This document shows positions 11,565-38,899 of a stretch of 43,738 bases of DNA, piece after piece. The notes under the pieces are model-generated. The model ran no database searches, had not been told where the DNA came from, and saw only the letters and a list, made by a program, of their open reading frames with translations. The stretch spans positions 1 through 43,738 of the forward strand of contig JBDRFD010000029.1 of assembly GCA_043819035.1 (NCBI GenBank). The letters run 5' to 3'. How positions within the stretch are numbered: the stretch's first letter is position 1; each line of letters begins with the position of its first letter. Source of the DNA: Patescibacteria group bacterium (lineage in GTDB: Bacteria; Patescibacteriota; Gracilibacteria; Peribacterales; Peribacteraceae). The translations under genes were made by a program, and so were the position numbers.

Positions 11565-12014
11565 ATGAACCTCAAACAGCGCAACTCCTTCACCCGACTC
11601 CGCACACTCCGCCGAGGTTTCACCCTCCTCGAACTAATGATCGTGCTAGGAATATTCGGTATCCTCGCCCTCATCGTTCTGGTTGCAATAAATCCAACCA
11701 AACAACTAAGCGAAGCACGCGGCGCGAACCGTCATGCGTCCGTGAGGGAAATAGAGAACGCTGTCATCCAGTACATCATTGATGGAAATGCGCTCGCAGG
11801 TATCCCCGCGGGAAAAATAAACTCACAGGATATCTGCAGAACAGGAATCTCGGGTGCGTGTTACGAACTCGATGTCCTTTCTCCGACGTATTTAGTCTCA
11901 CTTCCCATCGACCCGGACGAAACGGACCCGGATCTCACGGGTTATCGAATTTACATGCTTGGCAGCTTCATCAAGGTCTGCTCGCCGAGGGTGGACACCG
12001 ATTGTGGGACGTAA
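11565..12014 (+). CDS. Type IV pilin-like / pseudopilin protein with a prepilin N-terminal cleavage-methylation motif
   Basis: RRGFTLLELMIVLGIFGILALIVLVAINP matches the class III signal (G|FTLxE followed by a hydrophobic helix). The C-terminal region contains a Cys pair. Confidence 0.85.
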   Translation: MNLKQRNSFTRLRTLRRGFTLLELMIVLGIFGILALIVLVAINPTKQLSEARGANRHASVREIENAVIQYIIDGNALAGIPAGKINSQDICRTGISGACYELDVLSPTYLVSLPIDPDETDPDLTGYRIYMLGSFIKVCSPRVDTDCGT

Positions 12015-12045
12015 AGAAAGGGTAAAGTGTAAGGGGTAAGGGGAA

Positions 12046-12430
12046 AGGGGAAAGGGAAAATGTCTGAACCGTAGATTACGAACAATGTCTGAATCACGGA
12101 TATTACCTCTCCCCTCGATCCCCTCTCCACAGGAGAGGGGAAGCTCTGTTATTGCAGAAAACAGAGTTTTTACTTGTTAAACGAAGCTCCCCTTCCTCCC
12201 GTGGAGGAAGGGGCCGGGGGATGGAGGTAAAATCCGTGATTCAGACAACGTAAGAAGTTATGACAGAGATAAGTCTGAAACTAGGATTTGAAAGATTATC
12301 GACCTTCGCCTCTTGGCTACTAGGGACAAACTATGCTACGACCGATAAGAAAGGATTAAAGGATTAGCATGATTAATCTAGTTAATCCTTTAATCATGTG
12401 AATCATGGTCCCAGACAATTTGCTATCAGT
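12046..12430. repeat. Non-coding composite of nested palindromes, bounded by a ~70-bp direct duplication of the pilin gene 3' end
   Basis: It contains a family A inverted repeat (12086..12247), family B twin hairpins (12120..12213) and ATTAAAGGATTA...TAATCCTTTAAT (about 12354..12392). It is flanked by 11974..12045 and 12431..12500. Confidence 0.7.
12086..12247. repeat. Family A inverted-repeat element (TGTCTGAATCACGGAT arms)
   Basis: TGTCTGAATCACGGAT (12086..12101) and ATCCGTGATTCAGACA (12232..12247) are a perfect 16-bp inverted repeat, extendable to about 25 bp. Relatives lie at 20704..20820 and 35953..36054. Confidence 0.85.
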
Positions 12431-12599
12431 TCGCCGAGGGTGGACACCGATTGCGGAACGTAAAAAAGAGTAAAGTGTAAGGGGTAAGGGAAAAAGGGTA
12501 AGGGGAAAACGAATTTAATCAAGTTTTCCACTTTCCCTTTTCACTTTTCAGTTTCTTTCCGTTTCCCTTTACCCTTTTCCCCTTTAGAATCAACTCTCT

Positions 12600-17135: not shown

Positions 17136-17447
17136 ATGACTAGAATTGATACTAGCTCCATGGTCTCACATTGGTTGGATACCACAAATCGAACTGGAGC
17201 AACTGTTTTGGCTTCAATGAACGGATTACCGCCTGAAACTCAACTCCTAATGATGCAAAAACTTGCCGAGATGCGAGCAGGAACCCATTTGTTGGCCTCA
17301 AAAGCTTTCAGTATGGATGCCTTCCTGCACGAAATGGATCAGGAACTTCTCAGAAGAACGAGAGAACATTATCATCCAAATCCACTTCCTAAAGAAATTG
17401 AAGAAATCTTTCGTAGAAAAGGAGATCCAGACTCAGGCGAAAATTAA
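17136..17447 (+). CDS. Hypothetical protein (103 aa)
   Basis: ORF only, with no recognisable motif. Its composition is plausible for coding sequence. Confidence 0.45.
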   Translation: MTRIDTSSMVSHWLDTTNRTGATVLASMNGLPPETQLLMMQKLAEMRAGTHLLASKAFSMDAFLHEMDQELLRRTREHYHPNPLPKEIEEIFRRKGDPDSGEN

Positions 17448-17458
17448 ACATATAATAA

Positions 17459-17489
17459 ACGCAGCTGCGACGCGGCGTCGCAGCTGCGT
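17459..17489 (+). terminator. GC-rich near-perfect palindrome with 15-bp arms; possible terminator or a mobile-element end relic
   Basis: ACGCAGCTGCGACGC-G-GCGTCGCAGCTGCGT lies 12 nt after the stop at 17447. No T-run follows it. Confidence 0.4.
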
Positions 17490-17655
17490 ACTGGAACCGG
17501 AGAAATTCAATTCCATTCTCATGGACTGGCTGGTCTGGTACAACTGTGAAAGGCCACATTATGCTCATAAACTGGAAACCCCACTCCAATTTCTGTTATC
17601 CTTCTCCAAGACCCAGCAGGAGTGCAATTACAGGTGGACCGATACATACACTTGA
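17488..17655 (+). pseudogene. C-terminal remnant (about 55 codons) of a DDE integrase-type (rve) transposase
   Basis: The translation ...FNSILMDWLVWYNCERPHYAHKLETPLQFL... matches the conserved W-YN-x-RPH-x-L-x-TP tail of IS3/IS481-type transposases. No catalytic core lies upstream. Confidence 0.6.
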
Positions 17656-20894: not shown

Positions 20895-21926
20895 ATGATG
20901 CCCAAAAAGAAACCCAAAAAGAAACCGGGCCGAAAAAATCTGAGCCCAAAAGCCGCCCGTAAAGCTTTTTTACAGAAGCAATTTATGCAGGCCCAGCAAC
21001 TTGTCTTCAAAGAAAAAGCTCGCCAGGAAGCTACTAAAGGGGAACACAAAGAGGAAAGGGCAGCTGGGGAAGAGCTCGCACAGGAGCAGCTCAGTGAGAG
21101 ACAGCTTGAGGAAGAAAAGCAAAAGAAGGGGCGTGAGGAATGGAAGAAGAAAGAAGAAAAGGAAAAGGAGCTCCTCGCAGAAATGAAACGCAAACAAGAA
21201 GAAGAGAAGAAAAACCGCCGGAAATTCAAAGAACATCTGCAGGAGGAAGAGAAAAAGAATAAGCAACTGATGGAAGATCTCGCCGCTTCGAATGCCATCC
21301 GAGATAAAATGGAACGCAGAAAGATGGAAGGAGCTAAACTGGAAAGAGATACCAGGGCAGAGGCGAAAAGTACCGAAAACCGCAAACAGAATGAAGCTGA
21401 GATGAACGCAAAGAGTAAGAAGAAACAACTGGAATTGGCTAACAGAAAGGTGCAGGGGAAAATAGATGAAGAAGAACGGAGCAAAACGTATGTACTGGAG
21501 GATGAAGCACGAAGGCAAAAGGCAAAGCTTGACAACCAAGAACGCAAAAAGAAATCTGATCTTAAGTTCGCCTATGAACGCAAGCGAGCTGAAACACAAC
21601 GATTCACGAATCCGTATCAACAAAAAAGCGAAGTTATGAAGATTGACCGTGGGGAGCAAAGTGAACTGAAAAAGATAGAGGCAGAAACGCGCAGGCAGCA
21701 ATCGGAAATTGATGCGAAAACCAAGAAGGCGATCTTCGATGTTCAAAAGGAAGCAAGCCACAAGCGCGGTCAGGCCGCCTCGGATGAGCGCGGGCAAATA
21801 ACGCAGATCGACCTGGAGAAGCGTGAGGCCAAACGCCTGGCAGAACTGGAGGCCTCGCAGAAAAAGGCCGGCATCCGCCGCAGGCAGATCAAGATTTTGC
21901 ACGGAGAAGAGGAAACGGATTCCTAA
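20895..21926 (+). CDS. Highly charged Lys/Glu/Arg-rich low-complexity protein (343 aa)
   Basis: The plus frame gives a coiled-coil-like K/E/R sequence. The antisense ORFs are F/L/S-rich shadows. The 3' end has a diverged second copy at 22659..22715 with mostly synonymous differences, which supports this reading frame. Confidence 0.6.
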   Translation: MMPKKKPKKKPGRKNLSPKAARKAFLQKQFMQAQQLVFKEKARQEATKGEHKEERAAGEELAQEQLSERQLEEEKQKKGREEWKKKEEKEKELLAEMKRKQEEEKKNRRKFKEHLQEEEKKNKQLMEDLAASNAIRDKMERRKMEGAKLERDTRAEAKSTENRKQNEAEMNAKSKKKQLELANRKVQGKIDEEERSKTYVLEDEARRQKAKLDNQERKKKSDLKFAYERKRAETQRFTNPYQQKSEVMKIDRGEQSELKKIEAETRRQQSEIDAKTKKAIFDVQKEASHKRGQAASDERGQITQIDLEKREAKRLAELEASQKKAGIRRRQIKILHGEEETDS

Positions 21927-21962: not shown

Positions 21963-22319
21963 TCAAGAGTCACCATCCATATCGTTAAGCATTATGGTGA
22001 TTACTTTTTTGAGAACAGGCAGGTCTTTTTTAACAGTATCCCATACTCTCTGAACATTTGTCGCAGAGTATTCGTGAATGAGAATGTTGCGCATACTAAT
22101 AGCTTCCTTCCAGGATATCTGCTTGTACTTCTTTCTTAAAAGAACCGGCAGTTTACTGGCGGCTTCTCCGATAATCGATATCTGACGAATGACAGCATCC
22201 TGAGTTTTATCATCTCTACAAAACAATCTCTTCCCTTCGGTTGTGTATTCCTCAATATGAACAATGGCATTCAGGATATCATCCAAATATACCCGAACAT
22301 CTTTCTGTTGCTTGGTCAT
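21963..22319 (-). CDS. hepT: HEPN-domain (DUF86) toxin of a HepT/MntA-type module
   Basis: The R-x4-H motif is MRNILIHEY. The size and the 4-bp overlap with the upstream nucleotidyltransferase gene fit. Confidence 0.85.
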   Translation of the reverse strand: MTKQQKDVRVYLDDILNAIVHIEEYTTEGKRLFCRDDKTQDAVIRQISIIGEAASKLPVLLRKKYKQISWKEAISMRNILIHEYSATNVQRVWDTVKKDLPVLKKVITIMLNDMDGDS

Positions 22320-22627
22320 AATGCTCGAGCATCGGAAAGAATGCGCCTGCGTAGCGCAGGCTTGATGCTATCATCCGGAATAACATCTATTTTCCTTTGC
22401 AGAGTTTCTTCCAAATCAATTTTTAGTCCTGCAAGATCAAATAGCGTACTCCCCTTTGGCATCTTCACCAGAAGATCCAGATCGCTGCCCTTGGTCTGTT
22501 CCCCGCGGGAAAAAGAGCCGAAGACACGTACATTGCGCACTCCATGTTTGCGCGCAATACGCAACACCGGTGCACGCAGTCGTGCCATATTAAATCTCGC
22601 CTTGTGCAATTTCTTCTGATTGCTCAT
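22316..22627 (-). CDS. mntA: Minimal nucleotidyltransferase (MNT) antitoxin
   Basis: VFGSFSRGEQTKGSDLDLLV contains the GS-x-RGE...DxD nucleotidyltransferase motif. Confidence 0.85.
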   Translation of the reverse strand: MSNQKKLHKARFNMARLRAPVLRIARKHGVRNVRVFGSFSRGEQTKGSDLDLLVKMPKGSTLFDLAGLKIDLEETLQRKIDVIPDDSIKPALRRRILSDARAL

Positions 22628-22729
22628 AGCCTTATTATATCAAAGAACTATAAGACATAGAAAAAGGCCGGTATCCGCCGCAGGCAGATCAGAATCTTGC
22701 ATGGAGAAGAGGAAGAGTAATACGGCTTC

Positions 22730-22894: not shown

Positions 22895-22981
22895 GCCCAG
22901 GTGGCGGAATTGGTAGACGCGCTAGCCTTAGGAGCTAGTGGGATTAATCCCGTGGAGGTTCGATTCCTCTCCTGGGCACCA
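22895..22981 (+). tRNA. tRNA-Leu (anticodon UAG), class II with a long variable arm, CCA encoded
   Basis: Hand-folded cloverleaf. Acceptor GCCCAGG/CCTGGGC. Anticodon stem CTAGC/GCTAG with loop CTTAGGA. Variable arm GGGAT-TA-ATCCC. T arm GGAGG-TTCGATT-CCTCT. Discriminator A followed by CCA. Confidence 0.93.
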
Positions 22982-25865: not shown

Positions 25866-25918
25866 GGATAAACAGAAAAAAGAAGAAAAACAGGATTTGT
25901 CATGCTTAATCCTGTTTT
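25866..25918 (-). terminator. Rho-independent terminator of mfd; the stop codon sits inside the hairpin
   Basis: On the minus strand, AAAACAGGATT, a loop, then AATCCTGTTTT, followed by CTTCTTTTTTCTGTTT. The mfd TAA (25906..25908) lies at the loop/arm junction. Confidence 0.6.
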
Positions 25919-28900
25919 TCCTGTTTTTCCTGTTTTTCCTTTTTCTTCTTCACCATGGATTCCACCTCATTAGTTAGCTCCTTTAACCACTTATTAGCCT
26001 TCTCTCCACTCTTACGAACAATGGCGCCATGCTCAATCCTCAGTGTATTCCCGCTCACCCTCCACTGCGGATTTACTTTAAGCAGCTCCATAATTTCCTT
26101 GGCAGTTACCCTCGGACTCAGGGTCAGCACAATTTCTACGGAGTCTTTCTTGTTGCCAGACTCTTCTTTAACCCGCACAACTCCTGCGTGACGACATGCC
26201 ATTTTTAACCGCAGTACCGCGAAGAGATTCTCAACCTGCTCTGATAACTTGCCGTACTCCTCTTCCAGATCATCTTCGAACTCTTTCAGGATTTCTTCAT
26301 CCTCACTCCCCGCAAGCTTCTGGTACACGGATATTTTCTCCTGCGGGTCGGTGATGTAGAAAGAAGGAATCATCGCTTCCACGGGAAGAAGAATCTCCAC
26401 ATTAATTTCTTCCTCAGCTTCGCCTTTTCGTCCCGCTTTAATTTCCTCAACCGCAGCCTTGAGCATCCTGAGGTAATGGCTAACTCCAACCGTCTGCATC
26501 GTTCCCGACTGGTGCGCTCCGAGGATTTCACCGGCACCTCTGATCTCCAAATCTTTCATGGCTACCTGGAAACCGCTACCAAGTTCACACGCTTCCACAA
26601 TCGCACGGAGCCTCTTTCGCGCATCGTCCTTAAGTTTGGCGCCATGGTAAAGGAAATATGCGAAGGCCTGTCGCTTGCTGCGTCCGACTCGTCCACGCAG
26701 CTGATAGAGCTGCGCGAGGCCGAAGTTTTCCGCCCCGTTCACAATCAACGTATTCGCGCGTGGAAGGTCGATTCCGTTCTCGACGATGGTCGAACTCACC
26801 AGCACTTGGCACTCGCCTTTTTTAAAGGCCATGATTCGTTTCTCTAGATCATCGGGCCTAAGTTGCCCGTGTCCGACGATGAACGTCGCCTCGGGGATAA
26901 GTTCGCGCAGTTTGTCGGTAAATGCATCGATCGTTTCCACACGGTTATGCAACATGAAGACCTGCCCTTCACGCTTGATCTCTTCCAGAATCGCCTGGCG
27001 AACCAGCGAGTCTGAATATTTTCGCACTTCGGTGATAATGGGGAGGCGCCCCGGAGGAGGAGTGGTGATCGTCGTGATGTCACGCAACTTATGCAGTCCC
27101 AGGTTCAGTGTCCGGGGAATCGGTGTGGCGGTCAGCGTGAGGATGTCGACCGACGCGCGCATCTCCTTAAACTTTTCTTTCTGCTTCACACCAAAGCGTT
27201 GCTCCTCGTCTACTATTACAAGCCCCAAATTTAAAAACTGAACGTCAGGCTGGAGGAGGCGATGCGTTCCTATGATAATATCGATGTCCCCCTTCCTGAG
27301 TCTCTGAATAATTTCCTTCTGCTGCTTGGGACTTCTAAAGCGTGAGAGCATTTCGATGCGCACGGGAAAATCTGACATGCGTTCTTTGAAAGTATGGAAG
27401 TGCTGGTCGGCGAGAATGGTGATGGGCGCAACGAGCGCAACCTGTTTCCCGTCCTGCACTGCTTTGAATGCCGCGCGCATTGCCACTTCCGTTTTCCCGA
27501 ATCCCACATCTCCGCAGATCAGGCGGTCCATCGGGTAGTCATTCTCCATATCTTTTTTGAAATCTTCGATCGCTTTTAGCTGCCCCGGGGTTTCCTGGTA
27601 CGGGAATCCTTTTTCGAACTTTGCCTGGTCATTGTTATCATCCTTATAAGCAAACCCCTTGGCCTTCGCACGCTTCGCGTAGAGGTCTAGCAGGTCTTTG
27701 GCAATTTTCCTGGTCTCCACCCTCATCTTTTCGGATACTTTCTTCCATTCCATTGTCCCAAGCCTTGTCAGATTAGGTTCGTTCCCCTCTTCGTACACGA
27801 ACTTGCTGAGCTTGTCCGCCTGATCGACGGGGATAAAGAGTTTGTCGTTTTCCGCGTACGTCAATTCCAGATACTCGTGCATAGTGTTATCCACCTCCTT
27901 CTGTGTCATACCCTCAAATAGCCCAATCCCATGCTCCATGTGGACCACGTAGTCACCGGGGACGAGAGATGTGATAAAGTCGAGCGCGAGTTTGGCAATA
28001 CTCCTCTGCTTCCCGGCCTTCTTCAGAGAAAATATTTCGCGATCTGTGAGGAGCGCAAACTTGAGGTCCGGATTTTGGAGCGAGTGCGGGAGCAAATCAT
28101 CTTCTTCCGCGCCAATGAGAGTCACCACCCCCTTCTTGCTCTCCTTTTTTGTCGTATGTGCAATCCTCTCCTCACGCAAAATACCTTCCAGTTCTCCTAA
28201 ACGCTTTGTCACTACAAAGAGTGACCAGTCTTGGGTCAATTTATCGCGAATATCATTCAAGAAGTCGCCTAACGTATAGAACTTGAGAACCGAGAGATAG
28301 CGCACGTGCGCGTGATGTTCCTCGCCTGCCGGAAAAGGCGTAAACCTTAGCGCCGAATTCTGCAGAGGAAACTCGATATCATCCTGGTCATCCAGAACAA
28401 GGAGCGAATCCGCGGGCAGCTGCCTCGCAAGAGCGTTCGTCTGCTCATACACAATGGGGAAGACGGTGAGAGGTCCCTTGTACTCAGTCGTCTTGGAAAG
28501 ATCATCCCGATCAACCGCGAAGATCTTTTCGACCGTGTCAAACTCGAGCGCTACCCGAAAAGGTTGACTTTCCTGAATGGGATAAATGTCGAACACATCT
28601 CCGCTGCGTCTGTATTCCCCCGGCTGTAAGTACAGGTCTTCACCGTGGCTGTACCCTAAAGCCACTAATGACTCGACCACTTCTGTGAAATCAATCTCCT
28701 TTCCTTTCTTGAGAACGATTTTCTCTTCCTCCAGTTTTACAAATGATGGGAACATCGTGTCCCACGTTTTCCTTGAACAAAGATACACACCTACCCCCCT
28801 GCCACCGTCGCTCATGAGCGACGTGACTTGCATAAAGAGAAGGAACGGTTGCAGTGCCTGCGGGACTATCTCTCCCTCTCCATTTTCAATGGGGCTCAAG

Positions 28901-29130
28901 ACTTTTGTTTCCTGACCGAAGAATGCAAGCCAGTGCCGCCATGCCTCGCACTGCGCATCGTTCTCCGTGACGATGATGGTTGGTTGTTGGTTAAATGAGA
29001 GGAGATGACTGAGGAGCAACGCCTTTGCCGTCTCATTCGAGGCACCGGAAAGAATCAGCCGTCTTTTGGCCTTCAGAAGTTCTGCGAGTTCCCTGTGAGT
29101 TGCGCTCCCTAAAAGGAGAGAGGATTTCAT
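25906..29130 (-). CDS. mfd: Transcription-repair coupling factor
   Basis: Motifs are CGDVGFGKTEVA (Walker A), VIVDEEQRFGV (DEEQ box), LTLTATPIPRTL, QLYQLRGRVGRS, and a TRG-like C-terminal region. Confidence 0.95.
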   Translation of the reverse strand: MKSSLLLGSATHRELAELLKAKRRLILSGASNETAKALLLSHLLSFNQQPTIIVTENDAQCEAWRHWLAFFGQETKVLSPIENGEGEIVPQALQPFLLFMQVTSLMSDGGRGVGVYLCSRKTWDTMFPSFVKLEEEKIVLKKGKEIDFTEVVESLVALGYSHGEDLYLQPGEYRRSGDVFDIYPIQESQPFRVALEFDTVEKIFAVDRDDLSKTTEYKGPLTVFPIVYEQTNALARQLPADSLLVLDDQDDIEFPLQNSALRFTPFPAGEEHHAHVRYLSVLKFYTLGDFLNDIRDKLTQDWSLFVVTKRLGELEGILREERIAHTTKKESKKGVVTLIGAEEDDLLPHSLQNPDLKFALLTDREIFSLKKAGKQRSIAKLALDFITSLVPGDYVVHMEHGIGLFEGMTQKEVDNTMHEYLELTYAENDKLFIPVDQADKLSKFVYEEGNEPNLTRLGTMEWKKVSEKMRVETRKIAKDLLDLYAKRAKAKGFAYKDDNNDQAKFEKGFPYQETPGQLKAIEDFKKDMENDYPMDRLICGDVGFGKTEVAMRAAFKAVQDGKQVALVAPITILADQHFHTFKERMSDFPVRIEMLSRFRSPKQQKEIIQRLRKGDIDIIIGTHRLLQPDVQFLNLGLVIVDEEQRFGVKQKEKFKEMRASVDILTLTATPIPRTLNLGLHKLRDITTITTPPPGRLPIITEVRKYSDSLVRQAILEEIKREGQVFMLHNRVETIDAFTDKLRELIPEATFIVGHGQLRPDDLEKRIMAFKKGECQVLVSSTIVENGIDLPRANTLIVNGAENFGLAQLYQLRGRVGRSKRQAFAYFLYHGAKLKDDARKRLRAIVEACELGSGFQVAMKDLEIRGAGEILGAHQSGTMQTVGVSHYLRMLKAAVEEIKAGRKGEAEEEINVEILLPVEAMIPSFYITDPQEKISVYQKLAGSEDEEILKEFEDDLEEEYGKLSEQVENLFAVLRLKMACRHAGVVRVKEESGNKKDSVEIVLTLSPRVTAKEIMELLKVNPQWRVSGNTLRIEHGAIVRKSGEKANKWLKELTNEVESMVKKKKEKQEKQEKQD

Positions 29131-29333
29131 TAGATTTTCAAAATATTACTACTTTAGAAATGATGTATTCCGCTATAAGTCCCGCGATCCAAATAGATCG
29201 AGGAGACTGAGGTATTCACTGTGACTATGGATACTATAGCAATATTTTGGAGGGTTCTCAAGGATGATTTATATGTTTTTCTCTCCCAACAACCCAGATG
29301 TACTTCCATCACTACAGCTGGTGAAAGCTCTAA

Positions 29334-29469
29334 GGGCTAAAGCCCATTAAGTCTTTTGTTAACCCCGCATTCTCGCCTTCGCATAGCCGGATCGATAGTT
29401 CGAATGTCAATAAAATGTAGATGTCTCGTAAGAACGCTACGGCGGAGCAAGGTAAATGCGGGGTTAACA
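29334..29469. repeat. Second family C element, with an 85-nt interior
   Basis: GGGCTAAAGCCC (29334..29345). TGTTAACCCCGCAT (29357..29370) and ATGCGGGGTTAACA (29456..29469) are a perfect 14-bp inverted repeat. Confidence 0.75.
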
Positions 29470-29525
29470 AACGCATATTTTTAGTTGCACTTGCATGATT
29501 AGTAAGCATTCACGGTATTAAAGAG

Positions 29526-29562
29526 CTTACTCCTCCTGCAACCTAAGAGGCATTATCAGGTG
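29526..29562. repeat. Exact 37-bp copy of the dnaN 3' end (last 11 codons, stop, plus 1 nt)
   Basis: CTTACTCCTCCTGCAACCTAAGAGGCATTATCAGGTG is identical to 33040..33076. Confidence 0.9.
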
Positions 29563-29683
29563 GGGCGTACTCGCCGCTTATATCCCTGAGTGTTCCCCGA
29601 GATTTCATTATCGTTATTTAAAATTAATGTTCTATTATCAAAATAGATGTATAAAATACATATGATTTCCCCCCATCTTAATA

Positions 29684-31174
29684 ATGCTGAATATTGGCCT
29701 CGTACATCTTGTGCTCGTTGCTAGCTTATTAACAAACATCGTCTTGATGACTATCAATACACAAGGCCCTTCTCAGCTTGGGCAAATCATGGGAGACCCC
29801 TTTGTGGATGAATTTTATGAAGAGCCACAGGATATACTAGATCTTTTTGATTTTACGTCCGACCCCTCACCTGAACATGGTACATTTTACTCAGACTATG
29901 AAGATAGGGATGACGATGATGAGGAGCATGAGCCCTTTACTTCTGAAGCGCCTCTTGATCCTCCCGGTGAGCATGTCCCCGCTCTTACGCTTGCACATGA
30001 CACAGAGATCTCCTCATTACATAGCACTTTTGCCTCCGCTGCTGGACATGAGCCTGCTGAATCCGCAAGTGAATCTATTCACCATCCGGAAGATTCTTCC
30101 TACCATGACCCGGCTCTATCTACAGCTGGACATGACCCTGTGGTATCAACTGGCGATCATGAATCAACTCTTTCCCCGAGGCACGATGAAACACTCTCTA
30201 CTATGGGGCACTACCCTGTAGATAGTAGTACACATACAGCTTATGATTCTTTGAGCCATACCCCATCATTATCGACGAGCGGGCATTACCCCAGGCTCTC
30301 TGCAGACGGTAAACATGATCCCTCGGATTCTGGTTCTAAACATGATTCCTTTGCTTCTGCTACTCACGACATTACCGAATCATACATTGGGCATTGGCCA
30401 AGTGTGTCTGCTACGCATTCTGCTCTTGATTCATCCAGCCATGAAAGCGAGCTTTCTGTTGTTGGACACCACCCATCAATTTCCATACTACATACCATTG
30501 GTTACTCAGAAGCTCACAGCACCGAGGACTCTAAAGCTGGTCATGACCCCTTTGTGTCGACTGATGCTGAACATTCACCATCTGACTCATATGCTCATGA
30601 TCCTGTTGTAAGTGGAGCAGCCCCTCATGACCCTACTATGAGCACTGGTGGTCATTCTTTGAGTGACTCCTTAGGTGGTCATCCTGGTATGCATACGGTT
30701 TCATTAAGTGAAGAGGGGGCTCGTGCTCTTATGGAGGCTCATGCTATTGTTGGGAGTGAGCCTCATGACGCTGAATATTCCAGCTCTGATCATGATACTG
30801 CTGCTTCCGACGGTGAGCATAATCCTTTTTTATCACATGATCTAGCAACATCACTTGGTGATCATTTATCGAGTGCTTCCTCAATGCATACAGTACCTAA
30901 AAGCGAAGAAGGGGCTCATGATATTGTTGGGAGTGAGCCTCATGACGCTGAATATTCCGGTATTGGCCATACCACTAGTGACTCCTCAGGCATTCACGAT
31001 CCCGTTGTAAGTGAAGAAACCTATCATGATTCTGCTATGTCAACCGGTGACCATCCTGAGCCTCATGACCCGGCCTTCTCTGTTTTAGAACAACATTATG
31101 CCTCCGACTCAGGTCATGGGGAGGGTCACGATCCAATGGATTCATACGACGAAGATGGTGGTTACGGTGAGTAG
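29684..31174 (+). CDS. Membrane-anchored His/Asp/Ser/Pro-rich repeat protein (degenerate x-H-D-P-x-x-S units)
   Basis: The N-terminal TM segment is LVHLVLVASLLTNIVLMTI. It carries many GHDPVVS/HDPxxS-like units. The same repeat continues in frame after the TAG up to 31288. Confidence 0.7.
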   Translation: MLNIGLVHLVLVASLLTNIVLMTINTQGPSQLGQIMGDPFVDEFYEEPQDILDLFDFTSDPSPEHGTFYSDYEDRDDDDEEHEPFTSEAPLDPPGEHVPALTLAHDTEISSLHSTFASAAGHEPAESASESIHHPEDSSYHDPALSTAGHDPVVSTGDHESTLSPRHDETLSTMGHYPVDSSTHTAYDSLSHTPSLSTSGHYPRLSADGKHDPSDSGSKHDSFASATHDITESYIGHWPSVSATHSALDSSSHESELSVVGHHPSISILHTIGYSEAHSTEDSKAGHDPFVSTDAEHSPSDSYAHDPVVSGAAPHDPTMSTGGHSLSDSLGGHPGMHTVSLSEEGARALMEAHAIVGSEPHDAEYSSSDHDTAASDGEHNPFLSHDLATSLGDHLSSASSMHTVPKSEEGAHDIVGSEPHDAEYSGIGHTTSDSSGIHDPVVSEETYHDSAMSTGDHPEPHDPAFSVLEQHYASDSGHGEGHDPMDSYDEDGGYGE

Positions 31175-31294
31175 AACCATGATCCCTTTACTTCTGGGGC
31201 ACCGCATGATCCTGCTTTGAGCGAAGAAGCCAGTCATGATCCCTATGTGTCTGAACCTCATGATCCCTATATGTCAGAGTCAATGTAGTCTTTC

Positions 31295-32392
31295 TTAGTC
31301 GTTTTTTGGATCCTTTGTAATACAGCCTGTTAGCTCTTGTTGATCTTTAAACTTCTTTTGGCATGCAGCTACATGCCCCCAGATATCTACCATTTGTGAG
31401 TATGTTATGTATGGAGAGATAAGAACCCGGCTTGGCTTTCGATTGCCAGATTCATCCAGAAAATCTCCTCTTCCGCGTACTTTACCTTCTAAAGTTGGAT
31501 ATACCCTTATAATGTACTGCTCGAATTCTTCCGGATCCACAAAGTTATCTGCAAGCTGATCGAAGGGCCCATCATAATAATTATTCTGTCGCACATTCAT
31601 TTTATCTACTCCAAACAGAATTTTCCTTCCCATCCCAGGCTCATCATAAAATGCAAATCCTGAGCGCCTTCCTACGTAAATATCTTTCCCATACGGTTGA
31701 AGAAGATCGGGCAATGGTGCGGATTCATCTAGAACAAATCTGAATCTGGATTGCGTTTCATCAAAAAGAAGGACTAATTGAAATCCGGATTCATCAAATG
31801 TGCGCACAACAAATATTTCCCCCTCGTGCATTCTCATATCTACAGGCTCAGTTTGTGAAACATTGTGCAGAAGGAATGTTACAGTCTTATCTTTATATGT
31901 AACCGTGTATTCCAAATCATCAATTTTCTTCAGGATGACACCATCTTCATCGGAGAGATTTTTGTGCCATGATTCCCTATACTCAAAGTATGGTTCGCGC
32001 CGGTTTGTCACCCGAAAGTATGCGAAGCTAATGATCCCTTCTTCACGATCAATACTATCCAACCGAATATTCCCCCATATGTCCCCGCCATTTGCATAGA
32101 AATGGAAGTAGTAATAGTTCTCAGTTGGATACACATTCACAGTGTCTTTGAGCGAGCCAAACACGTATGAAAACATCGATTCAATGTCATCAAGATCCAG
32201 GGATTCTGATCTTACTTCGTCTATAAACTCTTCATTTGTATAGAGTTTGGGCATATTCCCTTTTAATGCTTCTGGGTCATTTCCTGTACCAACAGTTGAG
32301 CTCTGATTGGCACACCCCGTTAGAACCACACTAATTATGAGTGTTGCTATAGCGCCGATGGATTTCAAATAATTTATTTTCATCTTGTTCAC
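31295..32392 (-). CDS. Hypothetical lipoprotein (365 aa)
   Basis: The lipobox is ...IISVVLTGCANQSS, preceded by a basic N-terminus (MNKMKINYLK). Confidence 0.75.
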   Translation of the reverse strand: MNKMKINYLKSIGAIATLIISVVLTGCANQSSTVGTGNDPEALKGNMPKLYTNEEFIDEVRSESLDLDDIESMFSYVFGSLKDTVNVYPTENYYYFHFYANGGDIWGNIRLDSIDREEGIISFAYFRVTNRREPYFEYRESWHKNLSDEDGVILKKIDDLEYTVTYKDKTVTFLLHNVSQTEPVDMRMHEGEIFVVRTFDESGFQLVLLFDETQSRFRFVLDESAPLPDLLQPYGKDIYVGRRSGFAFYDEPGMGRKILFGVDKMNVRQNNYYDGPFDQLADNFVDPEEFEQYIIRVYPTLEGKVRGRGDFLDESGNRKPSRVLISPYITYSQMVDIWGHVAACQKKFKDQQELTGCITKDPKND

Positions 32393-32439
32393 TCTAACAT
32401 ATATTGCCTTATTTGCTCACATATCTTTAGCTGAGCAAC

Positions 32440-33010
32440 TGAGCAACTGAACACCCCTCGCCTTAAAGGCGAGGGGTTCGCGCTGCACTGAAGTGCCCTC
32501 GTTATTGGATATCCACAGTTCCGTGCTGCAATTCTTCTCCTTCTTGATTATCGATGTATTCCTTAATCATCTCATCTGTGATCGCACCACTTGATACTGC
32601 AAGGTATCCTCTTGCCCAGAAATGACGCCCCCAGAAGGTTTTGCGGACAGATGGAAAGAGAGAAAACAGTTTGTAAGGGCTTTCCCCTTTGATCTTTTGC
32701 ATAAGTTTTGAAATTGAAAGATGTGGTGGGTAGGATGCGAAGAGATGGACATGATCAATGGCAACTTTCCCTGAGATGATCTCTACATCTTCTTCCTGAC
32801 ATATTTGACGGATGAGATCTCGTACTTTCTCTCCAACTTGCCCATACAGTATTTTTTTGCGGTATTTTGGAACCCAGACTAGATGAACTTTAAGATCGTA
32901 TTTGCTGTGAGAAGTGGTGCGATAGTGCCTCATAAAAAGGCCACGTAGGGTACCACAAGTTGAGTAAGTGTCGAACTGAAGTCTCCGCCTAAAGGCGGGG
33001 GGTTTCACCC
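32440..33010 (-). mobile_element. IS200-type insertion sequence (IS200/IS605 family, tnpA only); boundaries approximate
   Basis: tnpA is flanked by subterminal hairpins CCCCTCGCC-TTAAA-GGCGAGGGG (32454..32476) and CTCCGCC-TAAA-GGCGGGG (32983..33000). Confidence 0.8.
32502..32933 (-). CDS. tnpA: IS200/IS605-family Y1 (HUH) transposase TnpA
   Basis: Motifs are MRHYRTTSHSKYDLKVHLVWVPKYRKK, the HUH motif HVHLF, and a C-terminal Tyr region (YIDNQ). I moved the start to 32933 so that the upstream hairpin is non-coding. Confidence 0.9.
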   Translation of the reverse strand: MRHYRTTSHSKYDLKVHLVWVPKYRKKILYGQVGEKVRDLIRQICQEEDVEIISGKVAIDHVHLFASYPPHLSISKLMQKIKGESPYKLFSLFPSVRKTFWGRHFWARGYLAVSSGAITDEMIKEYIDNQEGEELQHGTVDIQ

Positions 33011-33040
33011 ATTCCCCGAACTAGATACTAAGGACCACAC

Positions 33041-34201
33041 TTACTCCTCCTGCAACCTAAGAGGCATTATCAGGTGCAGCGACTGCTTTGCAGATGGAAT
33101 GTGGAATACCGCGGGGTGCATACTATCTGTGATGTGTACTTCCACCTCTTGATCGTCCACATGAGTTAAAAAGTCGAGGAGGTACGAGGAGCTTAGGGCA
33201 ATCTTGTTCGCGCTTCCGTCGACCGACACATCAAGCGTGGCTTCGTCTGTTCCGATCTGCGTCTGTGGAGTTTTGATGTGAAGGGATCCCTTTTTGAAAC
33301 TGAATGTGAGATTGTTATTAATCTCTTTCGCGAAGTAGTGCATACGTTTTACAACCGTAAGGAGTTCCTTTGTAGGAATCTTCACCTTGGTATTCGAGTC
33401 TTTTGGAATAATCTGCTGATAGTCCGGGAACTTTCCTTCGATCAGGCGCGAAAGGAGTTGTGTCTGCCCCACTGCCAATTCAATTTGTTGGCTACTCAAA
33501 GAGATCTCAACCTTTGGAGCTGCCTTTTTCTTTTTGTCCTCTTCTTCTCCACCCTTTTCTGTTTTCCCATCCTCCTTTTTGGAACCCAGTACACTCTTAA
33601 GTTCTTCCAAGACCTTTGCAGGAATGATGCAGGAGATATCGGATCCTCCGCTCATCGGAATACTATATTCAGAGAGTCTGTAGCTGTCTGTGGCCACAAA
33701 TACCAATTTCCCCTTCTCCGCGCGCAAATATACTCCGGAGAGTACCGGTCTTAGTGTTGATTTCGCTGATGCGAATGTCACCATATGAAGCGCATCCAGA
33801 AGCGGACCGGTATCCAAAGAGAATGACACTTCTTTTTCTATGGATGTGATTGTGGGATATTCAGATGCTGCTTCACCTGCAATTATTGTCTTTGCGTGTT
33901 TAGAGGTACATTTAAGTTGGGTCCCCTCACTGGTCTCCAAGAGAACCTCGTCATCAGAATTATATTGCGCAAAGTTTAATATTGCTTTTGATGGCACCGT
34001 AATCGCCCCCTCGTTTTCTATACTCGCTTCAAAGCTTGTCACAATACTCAGTTCCAAATCGGTTGCACTTACGGTGCACCTCTTTCCTTCGGCCACAATT
34101 AAAATATTTCCAAGAATCGGAAGTGCCTGCTGCCCGCTTATCGCACGACTCACAAGATGAATTGATTGGAGAAGTTGTGATGTTTGGCAGGAAAATTTCA
34201 T
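33041..34201 (-). CDS. dnaN: DNA polymerase III beta sliding clamp
   Basis: The N-terminus is MKFSCQTSQLLQSIHLVSRAISGQQALPILGNILIVAEG. The three-domain length fits, and the C-terminus is LIMPLRL. A K/E-rich insertion (KKEDGKTEKGGEEEDKKKKAAP) is present. Confidence 0.95.
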   Translation of the reverse strand: MKFSCQTSQLLQSIHLVSRAISGQQALPILGNILIVAEGKRCTVSATDLELSIVTSFEASIENEGAITVPSKAILNFAQYNSDDEVLLETSEGTQLKCTSKHAKTIIAGEAASEYPTITSIEKEVSFSLDTGPLLDALHMVTFASAKSTLRPVLSGVYLRAEKGKLVFVATDSYRLSEYSIPMSGGSDISCIIPAKVLEELKSVLGSKKEDGKTEKGGEEEDKKKKAAPKVEISLSSQQIELAVGQTQLLSRLIEGKFPDYQQIIPKDSNTKVKIPTKELLTVVKRMHYFAKEINNNLTFSFKKGSLHIKTPQTQIGTDEATLDVSVDGSANKIALSSSYLLDFLTHVDDQEVEVHITDSMHPAVFHIPSAKQSLHLIMPLRLQEE

Positions 34202-34566
34202 GTCTCTATAGTAATAAAGAAATATAATATTATAAATAGAAATAGAAGTAATAGTGTACTCTTCCCATAAAATAAATAATCAGTGTCTCATCTGTGGATG
34301 ATATGGGGACAAAAAAGAAACACAAGCATATTCTCAATTTAAAGCCACACAGCGTTGTGGAAGTTCAAAATTTGTATGTGTGGGGGGTGTGGAAAACTTG
34401 TGGATAACCATATTGACGGAACACCTGTAGCAACAATCTGTACTTTTAGTTTAACGCAAGCCAAAAGAGTTGGGTGGGTGTGGAAAAGTAGCAAAACATG
34501 TGGAGGTGGAGGAGCGAGGTCTTTCCACAGACGTTGTGGATAACTTTTGTGTCCAAAAGAGAGGAG
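34202..34566. promoter_or_regulatory. oriC-like region: AT-rich stretch plus a cluster of DnaA boxes upstream of dnaN
   Basis: There are perfect TTATCCACA complements at 34399..34407 and 34535..34543. One-mismatch boxes lie at 34293..34301, 34388..34396 and 34479..34487. Weaker boxes lie at 34356..34364 and 34521..34529. The stretch 34205..34290 is AT-rich. Confidence 0.65.
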
Positions 34567-36063: not shown

Positions 36064-36891
36064 TCAAAACTCCATCGACACCGTCCCCTCCTTCCGTGTT
36101 TCATGTGTTGGAATGCCAAGCGAGGAGTATCGCTCAAGTGTCCAGGGATCAGGATGGCCGAAACTATTTTCTTCTCCAACCGAGATGATTGCCTGATTAG
36201 GATTCACCACCAGGAGGAACTGCTGCGATGAAGATGTCCGTGATCCATGGTGTGCAACCTTAAGAACTTTTGATCGAATATCTGCTCCAGTATCGAGGAG
36301 TGCATACTCAGCCTCATTTTCAATATCACCCGTGAGGAGAATAGATTGATCTGCAAAGAGCGCACGTATTACTACAGATGAGTTGTTAAGGTTTTTGTCA
36401 TTGCGAAAACTTTTTTCAGGCCAGACCACATCAAGCACCACACCATCACCAAGGTCGATGTCTTCTGTAGGGTCAGCAATGCTCACGGGGATATGCTGGT
36501 TTTTCACTTCATGAAGAAGTGCCAGGTATCGGCTCACTTCTGCCTCTGTGCCGGCAAGAAGGATATGTTTGACCTCATAACGCTTCGCCACTTCGGGAAA
36601 AGATGCCAGGTGATCGGTATGTGGATGTGTAAGAACTAGCAGGTCAATGCTCCGGTCAAAGAAGGGCATGTACTTTCCGAGGTGTTCAAGTGTGGACATA
36701 TCCGGCCCCCCATCCACTAATACTTGCTTGCCGGATGGAGTAATAAGAAAAGTAGAATCACCCTGCCCTACATCCAGAAAGTGCACGTGGAGCTTCCCGT
36801 CCGGTAGGAGGATAAGCTCATGAAGCGCAAGCAGAACCGCAATAGCCGTGAAAGCTATAAGTAAACGCCGGAGGGAATAGGATGCACTCAT
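36064..36891 (-). CDS. Metallo-beta-lactamase fold protein, ComEC/Rec2 C-terminal-domain-like, with an N-terminal TM anchor
   Basis: Motifs are HFLDVGQGDSTFLITPSGKQVLVDGG, THPHTDH (the HxHxDH motif) and VAHHGS. Confidence 0.8.
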   Translation of the reverse strand: MSASYSLRRLLIAFTAIAVLLALHELILLPDGKLHVHFLDVGQGDSTFLITPSGKQVLVDGGPDMSTLEHLGKYMPFFDRSIDLLVLTHPHTDHLASFPEVAKRYEVKHILLAGTEAEVSRYLALLHEVKNQHIPVSIADPTEDIDLGDGVVLDVVWPEKSFRNDKNLNNSSVVIRALFADQSILLTGDIENEAEYALLDTGADIRSKVLKVAHHGSRTSSSQQFLLVVNPNQAIISVGEENSFGHPDPWTLERYSSLGIPTHETRKEGTVSMEF

Positions 36892-38693: not shown

Positions 38694-38899
38694 CTCCTTC
38701 CTGCCACCGTCGCACATGTGCGACGTGGCCTGCGGTTGCCCTCCGCTTTTCTTTTCGTTAACCGAACAAATACATTCAAACTACGATAATCGGTAGTTGA
38801 TTGATTGCTTGACTCTTGTATTGTTTCTGAGTTCCTGCAAGGGACGATAAGAGTAGGAACAGGTCCTGCTCATTCACAACTTTTTTCGGAGGAACGATC

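Follow-up and report, generated by a model that had tools for sequence, protein, structure and literature searches.

How did the 3′ end of an essential gene come to stand twice, letter for letter, at the two ends of a 3.5-kb islet that parts this gene from its conserved neighbor? The question is raised by contig JBDRFD010000029.1, a stretch of 43.7 kb that is the sole portion of its source genome at hand (hereafter, the window) and that its dnaN relatives place in the Peribacteria (Peregrinibacteria, Candidate Phyla Radiation, CPR). The islet lies between dnaN and mfd and is bounded by an exact 37-bp direct repeat of the dnaN end. Our favored answer, held with moderate confidence, is a homology-driven insertion that duplicated the gene tail, in a mosaic locus, and not transposition. 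The features that define the problem are the following.

25906–29130, minus strand: mfd, transcription-repair coupling factor, recognized by its Pfam domains and as the conserved neighbor of dnaN.
29526–29562, minus strand: left copy of the repeat, a displaced, non-coding relic of the dnaN tail (exact match; its flank is collinear with that of the real tail in the islet-free contigs L063 and L064).
33040–33076, minus strand: right copy of the repeat, the functional 3′ tail of dnaN (exact match; in frame at the end of the dnaN open reading frame, ORF).
33041–34201, minus strand: dnaN, beta clamp of DNA polymerase III (TIGR00663, 1e-74; three Pfam beta-clamp domains).

The 37-mer (CTTACTCCTCCTGCAACCTAAGAGGCATTATCAGGTG) occurs exactly twice on the plus strand, at 29526–29562 and 33040–33076, just as an earlier note on this DNA had reported. 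There is no third copy in the window with up to three mismatches, and 100 shuffles yielded zero occurrences of the repeat, so that none is expected by chance. Similarity ceases at both edges, with two mismatches in the next five bases and nothing beyond. Reverse-complemented, the right copy gives the final 11 codons of dnaN (HLIMPLRLQEE) together with its stop codon and a single base beyond; no ORF reads into the left copy. An exact search for the 37-mer in contigs of the Joint Genome Institute (JGI) metagenomes gave 0 matches. Read on the minus strand outward from dnaN, the islet consists of an IS200-type tnpA, a 365-aa lipoprotein ORF and, on the opposite strand, a 496-aa ORF rich in repeats; ORF and profile evidence thus bears out the content listed in the earlier note (IS200-type tnpA, lipoprotein gene and His/Asp/Pro-repeat gene). 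A dif/Xer-like site within the 37-mer was unconvincing when examined by eye: it contains ATAA and TTAG separated by 6 bp but lacks palindromic arms, and another relative carrying a relic, L021, does not conserve the motif.

The two copies are not equivalent, as becomes evident from relatives lacking the islet. Through members of the mfd cluster of the window we reached two JGI metagenome contigs, L063 and L064, in which TCTTTAA follows the real dnaN tail (CATCTGATAATGCCTCTGAGGCTGCAGGAGGAGTAG) without a break and opens a spacer, collinear with the window from 29525 down to 29131, that leads to mfd; L001 likewise has the empty site. The insertion between dnaN and mfd, and the empty site that the earlier note expected in relatives, are therefore both found. 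Because the tail of L063 and L064 continues straight into the same downstream sequence, the left copy marks the original position of the dnaN tail; it is a displaced relic that is still joined to the ancestral intergenic sequence.

29131–29525, minus strand: ancestral dnaN-mfd intergenic region, collinear with the dnaN-mfd spacer of L063.

This region contains a predicted promoter-like site for mfd (29261–29233; TTGAGA-17-TATAGT with an upstream TG), and as this conserved site lies ~270 bp further on, we rejected the idea that the relic belongs to the mfd promoter. The same region also bears a palindrome (29355–29471), whose perfect 17-bp inverted arms enclose ~83 nt. The palindrome of L063 (GTTAACCCCGCATTT/AAATGCGGGGTTAAC) is a tight hairpin devoid of the ~83 bp, and for this reason these (29372–29454) look inserted into the loop; no other copy of the loop or palindrome sequence was found in the window or in any locus.

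The history of the islet is best read from a sister genome, GCA_018827745.1, which carries it on contigs L062 and L067. On contig L062, 24 bp separate dnaN from the lipoprotein gene, the repeat-protein gene comes next, and IS200 is missing. Contig L067 enters at the 5′ end of the repeat-protein gene and continues through ...GCGGCGAGTACGCCC and a relic to the intergenic region and mfd; contig L066, from a second metagenome-assembled genome, matches it with 0 mismatches in 2701 bp.

29563–29683, no strand assigned: the islet's distal end, preceding the repeat-protein gene; it ends in ...GCGGCGAGTACGCCC beside the relic, a junction that is identical in L067 and L066.

Independent assemblies thus place the cargo in the chromosome at the same distal junction. 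Since the sister shares both cargo and junction, the islet predates the split of the two genomes. The repeat copies of the sister are far from exact, differing from one another at 13 of 37 positions. Its working tail (CATTTGATTATGCCGTTGAGGTTGCAGGAGGAATAAA) shows 8 differences from the 37-mer of the window, of which the 7 located in codons are all synonymous; its relic (CACCTGATAACGCCACTGAGACTTCAGGAAGAGTGAG) also shows 8, one of them non-synonymous.

Divergence between window and sister is distributed in patches. There are 7 mismatches in ~1120 nt of dnaN, followed by a patch of 63–88% identity from 33076 to ~32002 that takes in tail and spacer as well as the 5′ third of the lipoprotein gene, and then by a single mismatch in the 2.4 kb from 31997 to 29563. 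The sequences diverge again from base 11 of the relic onward. Past the relic the intergenic regions are unrelated, being similar to that of L063 in the window and to those of L001 and L002 in the sister, and within mfd blocks at 100% alternate with blocks at 81–89% identity. These comparisons indicate a strongly mosaic locus in which each copy of the repeat lies at the margin of a recombination patch. Gene conversion of one copy by the other was considered and set aside, as it fails to explain why the divergent patch extends past the right copy for ~490 bp, well inside the lipoprotein gene. The exactness of the repeat had been taken by the earlier note as a sign of a recent event, a conclusion that does not hold: a sister with the same cargo and junction has copies differing at 13 of 37 positions, the copies sit at patch edges, and 37 bp are too short for dating. 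Indeed, unrecombined segments of the two genomes differ by at most 0.5%, so that an unmutated 37-mer carries no dating information.

The IS200 element (IS, insertion sequence) is a separate matter, and its limits could be fixed by alignment.

32446–33031, minus strand: IS200 element, 586 bp, with ends defined by alignment to L069, L070 and L071.
32502–32933, minus strand: tnpA, 143 aa from the ATG used by its homologs (PF01797, 2.4e-40; NF033573, 3.5e-44).
33032–33039, minus strand: dnaN-proximal part of the spacer, TGTGGTCC, 8 bp between the repeat and the left end of the IS.
32429–32445, minus strand: distal part of the spacer, TGCTCAGTTGCTCAGCT, 17 bp between the right end of the IS and the start of homology with the sister islet.

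With 150 bits against NF033573 (cutoff, 55), the tnpA product qualifies as a Y1 HUH transposase. A related IS, shared by L069 and L070 over 581 bp at 100% identity within unrelated flanks, aligns end to end with the element of the window, which begins with TTAGTA at its left end and finishes with GTTCAGT at its right end. Similar subterminal hairpins lie near the two ends (a perfect 12-bp one at 32453–32477, and CCGCC-TTTA-GGCGG at ~32983–32996). The element has no terminal inverted repeats and no flanking duplication, its flanks TGTGGTCC and TGCTCAGT being unrelated. It sits within the 25-bp spacer between dnaN and the lipoprotein gene, with its left end 8 bp from the repeat. This distance and the absence of IS200 from the sister islet exclude it as the maker of the 37-bp repeat, as the earlier note had already maintained; the element is a later, independent passenger. 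Y1 transposition is reported to leave no duplications (PMC5027513). An interaction between IS200 TnpA and the beta clamp is also reported there (PMC5027513), but it is a coincidence of names with no bearing on insertion beside the dnaN gene.

Duplicated gene tails are not confined to this islet. In L002 (10816–11948), whose DnaN is 90% identical to that of the window, dnaN is followed by a 229-aa ORF with no family match, flanked by an imperfect repeat of ~105–130 bp. This repeat takes in the final 33 bases of dnaN, stop codon included, and ~100 bases of the sequence that follows; in its distal copy, synonymous codons specify LIMPLRLQEE and a stop. L021 (9452–9525) shows a 33-nt relic, MFLRLQEE and a stop in different codons, 48 nt after the real stop, with a GC-rich hairpin between the real tail and the relic. 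Relics thus start 36 bases before the end of the stop codon in window and sister, and 33 in both L002 and L021, that is, within 4 nt; the right-hand limit of the repeats varies from 1 base to ~100 bases past the stop. Because relics and working tails differ almost only at synonymous sites, the relics derive from functional dnaN ends of different lineages. No further dnaN relic, whether shorter or longer, appeared in ~75 loci, even when scanning for the last six residues and the stop, nor in the reverse-strand controls, and a second metagenome scan with dnaN added 21 loci and no new relic.

Other genes show the same kind of scar. Within the window, the last ~38 nt of a type IV pilin-like gene (11565–12014) plus ~46 nt downstream are duplicated at 74% identity (11977–12060 and 12426–12509; 84 bp, 449 bp apart), and so is the tail of a K/E-rich ORF (20895–21926), at 91% identity (21859–21914 and 22659–22714; 56 bp, 800 bp apart), where the repeats flank an opposite-strand toxin-antitoxin cassette of HepT (21963–22319) and MNT nucleotidyltransferase (22316–22627). 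A scan of 1090 ORF tails added one case, in L020. Tail duplication therefore affects different genes and involves different lengths: 84 bp in the pilin gene, 56 bp in the K/E-rich ORF and 37 bp in dnaN, besides the ~105–130 bp of L002 and the case in L020.

From these observations we infer the following route and order of exchanges. The incoming DNA would have consisted of a dnaN tail followed by cargo; it would have recombined through homology in dnaN and been rejoined to the recipient just upstream of the recipient's own tail. This could have occurred either by homology-facilitated illegitimate recombination (HFIR), with the joint placed before the end of the homology, or by a single crossover of a recircularized fragment (insertion-duplication). 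The incoming tail would then have become the working end of dnaN, leaving the resident last 37 bp as a relic 3.5 kb downstream, attached to the old intergenic region and mfd. The 586-bp IS200 would have entered the 25-bp spacer beside dnaN later, and frequent homologous exchange among co-occurring strains would have rewritten both copies of the repeat.

In keeping with such a course, the insert is contiguous on one side with an anchor gene, dnaN, whose end it replaces, and a patch boundary falls at the tail. Neither the islet nor the larger ORFs of the window contain a tyrosine or serine recombinase, the ORFs listed for the dnaN-mfd gaps of 11 relatives include no recognizable integrase, and no inverted repeats pair the ends of the islet. 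A nearby protein with a ComEC-type metallo-beta-lactamase (MBL) domain and the type IV pilin genes would be compatible with DNA uptake. Duplications of a homologous segment by single crossover of truncated, recircularized DNA have been described in E. coli (PMC3240628), and 3′-end displacement at type VI secretion system (T6SS) and Rhs loci has been attributed to HFIR (PMC5361080). The earlier note had proposed either "site-specific or homology-driven" insertion, which we judge to be the right pair of alternatives.

Several points weigh against homology-driven insertion. The starts of independent dnaN relics cluster (33–36 bases before the end of the stop codon) more tightly than random illegitimate joints predict. 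The same cargo end (GCCC) adjoins the relic in two genomes whose sequences beyond the relic are unrelated, and this shared junction would require either a crossover within at most 10 nt or site-specific insertion. A single crossover on 37 bp of homology would be inefficient, and the donor arrangement, dnaN followed by cargo with no relic, was not found. Lastly, classical HFIR mostly deletes recipient DNA instead of duplicating it (PMC3240628).

Some of these points favor site-specific integration, which we consider possible although unlikely. Here the conserved last 11–12 codons of dnaN would be the bacterial attachment site (attB), entered by a non-autonomous cassette that carries its own mimic of the dnaN tail (attP) and depends on a recombinase encoded elsewhere; the two 37-mers would be attL and attR, as in cis-mobilizable elements (CIMEs), mobilizable islands and the Xer-dependent integrative mobile elements (IMEX). 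The block of identity indeed extends from the junction to just past the stop, as with integrases that target gene 3′ ends, three independent relics have their start points 33–36 bases ahead of the last base of the stop, and the same cargo end meets two different host contexts at the same base. Moreover, working tail and relic come from different lineages, as if the element had brought its own tail, and dnaN is enriched in relics relative to the ~1000 other ORFs scanned. However, no integrase turned up in the islet, among the window's larger ORFs or in the dnaN-mfd gaps of the 11 relatives inspected, and examination by eye revealed neither inverted core sites nor a dif-like palindrome in the 37-mer. 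The repeat of L002 reaches ~100 bp into ordinary intergenic sequence, repeat lengths range from 33 to ~130 bp, and other genes of the window bear the same kind of scar. Nor did the cargo turn up at any other location or in circular form, and the JGI metagenome contigs do not contain the 37-mer. A bolder version, a dedicated route of cassette insertion in the Peribacteria in which a recombinase encoded elsewhere recognizes the conserved last 11–12 dnaN codons and inserts integrase-less cargo with a synonymous replacement tail, seems to us distinctly doubtful. If true, it would turn the end of dnaN, near the likely origin, into a place in the chromosome where cassettes dock, much like an integron attI or a dif/IMEX site.

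Duplicative insertion is very unlikely. In that case the cargo would have been pasted into staggered breaks 37 bp apart, producing a long target-site duplication, and the copies in relatives would have been overwritten afterwards by homologous exchange. Both copies are in fact identical in the window, and a mosaic locus could let the real tails of other lineages overwrite either one; yet the islet lacks terminal inverted repeats, its sole transposase belongs to the nested and unrelated IS200, and the relics of the sister, L002 and L021 carry differences of the synonymous type. We know of no transposition system that generates duplications of variable length, from 33 to 130 bp.

An assembly ambiguity, with an islet-free chromosome and a 3514-bp circle sharing the 37-mer and threaded together at k ≤ 37, is highly improbable. 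At such k both configurations give an identical k-mer graph, and validation of the contig needs reads; the two forms differ in that the integrated one has a dnaN-37mer-IS side and a GCCC-37mer-CTCTTTAAT side. Nevertheless, common assemblers end with k > 37, and independent assemblies of the sister have the cargo flanked by dnaN on one side (L062) and by mfd on the other (L067, L066), and their repeats, being non-identical, are uncollapsible in a graph. Finally, mobilization of the entire 3.5-kb unit by the IS200 transposase, to which only the position of tnpA as sole mobility gene of the islet, adjoining the right copy, lends any color, is barely conceivable, since the ends of the IS lie 8 bp and 17 bp inside the spacer and match those of related copies, Y1 transposition makes no duplications (PMC5027513), and the IS-free islet of the sister effectively refutes it.

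Cargo makes up 2.9 kb of the 3.5-kb islet, in two convergent genes.

31295–32392, minus strand: cargo gene 1, ORF for a 365-aa lipoprotein with lipobox LTGC.
29684–31174, plus strand: cargo gene 2, ORF with internal repeats for an acidic His/Asp/Pro-rich repeat protein of 496 aa.

The lipoprotein has no Pfam match, and a dapD-like NCBIfam match is negligible and far below the cutoff. Its family includes more than 1000 homologs from many phyla and in unrelated gene contexts, the closest one being P0001 of the sister (on L062; 92% aa identity). The AlphaFold2 model is a confident one, with a predicted local distance difference test (pLDDT) score of 88, and found no PDB fold match at E ≤ 0.001. 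The repeat protein has a hydrophobic N-terminus and no Pfam or NCBIfam match. Both products are probably cell-surface or secreted proteins. Window and sister differ by one mismatch between 31997 and 30099. The repeat ORF stops at a TAG (31172–31174), although the same repeat runs on in frame for 37 codons up to a second TAG (to 31288), identically in the sister; the TAG inside the repeats may be a recent nonsense mutation or be read through. The lipoprotein, the repeat protein and the tnpA of the window were absent from 61 of 61 genome loci, and exact-protein look-ups with DnaN, the lipoprotein and Mfd of the window gave no match.

Across ~55 loci from Peribacteria, the gene order MBL-fold protein, GlmU-like protein, dnaN, mfd and a small ORF is conserved, and the nearest DnaN proteins (L001, 91% identity; L002, 90%) belong to this group. 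The dnaN-mfd gap mostly measures 6–350 bp and reaches 0.6–6 kb in some lineages. Larger gaps contain unrelated accessory genes that differ by relative: L024 has a Phd/ParE toxin-antitoxin pair besides other ORFs, L003 a PD-(D/E)XK protein, L004 and L005 a membrane protein of 803 aa, and L014 a secreted protein of 1426 aa. For this reason the gap is a variable hotspot for accessory genes across the Peribacteria. Just upstream of dnaN (34293–34543) there are six DnaA-box-like sites (TTWTCCACA), including 4 of the 6 perfect matches in the window; this cluster is probably oriC or a DnaA-regulated region, which would locate the hotspot ~1.2 kb from the likely origin. An attachment site in a transfer RNA (tRNA) or transfer-messenger RNA gene at the islet was ruled out, because Rfam gave no match over 29000–33200 even at E ≤ 1 and the only tRNA found is at position 22895.

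The ComEC-type MBL protein mentioned above (36064–36891) is a stand-alone protein of 275 aa that matches only the C-terminal metallo-beta-lactamase domain of ComEC/Rec2 (TIGR00361, 3.5e-36, below cutoff); its gene, two genes upstream of dnaN, is conserved across Peribacteria. A weak match to an rve_3 integrase core (17263–17655; E 2e-4, below cutoff) may correspond to a degraded DDE transposase fragment. A 34-nt repeat containing a palindrome is found, at 88% identity, within the mfd coding region (28798–28831) and in an intergenic position (38700–38733); at the former, Mfd of the window has extra residues (VTSLMSDGGRGV versus GEE in L002), which suggests a small in-frame insertion of a repeat element. 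A hairpin-type repeat, CCC(C/T)TCCTCCCGTGGAGGA(G/A)GGG, occurs at 1129–1158 and 12190–12219, one copy being within the segment inserted after the pilin gene.

Comparison with known systems helps to define what kind of event this was. The IS behaves as a standard member of IS200/IS605, with 586 bp, a Y1 transposase, similar subterminal hairpins and neither inverted repeats nor duplication; unlike a causal element, it is a passenger of the islet and not the origin of the repeat. Islands that carry an integrase occur at the 3′ ends of housekeeping and tRNA genes, and their decayed, att-flanked derivatives are the CIMEs, for example at fda in Streptococcus thermophilus. The dnaN islet resembles them in that its direct repeat corresponds to the 3′ end of the gene targeted, the working end is the one brought in by the element and remnants are non-autonomous and devoid of integrase; it departs from them in that neither the islet nor this site in the relatives inspected yielded an integrase or a trace of one, the repeats differ in length from one event to the next and an excised form is not known.

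A further parallel is with HFIR and insertion-duplication (de Vries and Wackernagel, 2002; Prudhomme et al., 2002; both as cited in PMC5361080), where one side is anchored in a homologous gene with novel DNA alongside, and a direct repeat of the anchor end flanks the insert. The repeat here is 37 bp, versus 109–950 bp in PMC3240628, and the mostly deletional outcome of classical HFIR is a further difference; the precedents also come from other bacteria. Displacement of C-terminal 3′ ends in Rhs, contact-dependent inhibition (CDI) and T6SS effectors (Jackson et al., 2009, as cited in PMC5361080) is alike in that the incoming module supplies a new 3′ end, the old end is orphaned downstream and arrays spread by homologous recombination (PMC5361080). 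Those systems, however, swap toxic tips together with immunity genes and keep long orphan fragments, whereas in the window the gene affected is an essential housekeeping gene whose peptide tail stays the same, and the cargo is made up of unrelated genes of surface type.

We thus regard the islet as an ordinary recombination footprint, of an already known kind, at the essential dnaN gene of an uncultured member of the Peribacteria. It offers the practical lesson that an exact short repeat is not a clock and that an IS within an islet need not be its mover; the clustering of relic starts at the dnaN tail is the one feature that merits a larger survey. For the organism, it means that a CPR bacterium with a small genome acquires surface or secreted proteins peculiar to its strain, along with toxin-antitoxin cassettes, next to core genes near its likely origin, without recognizable mobile-element machinery, and that the resulting scars are rewritten by frequent homologous exchange.

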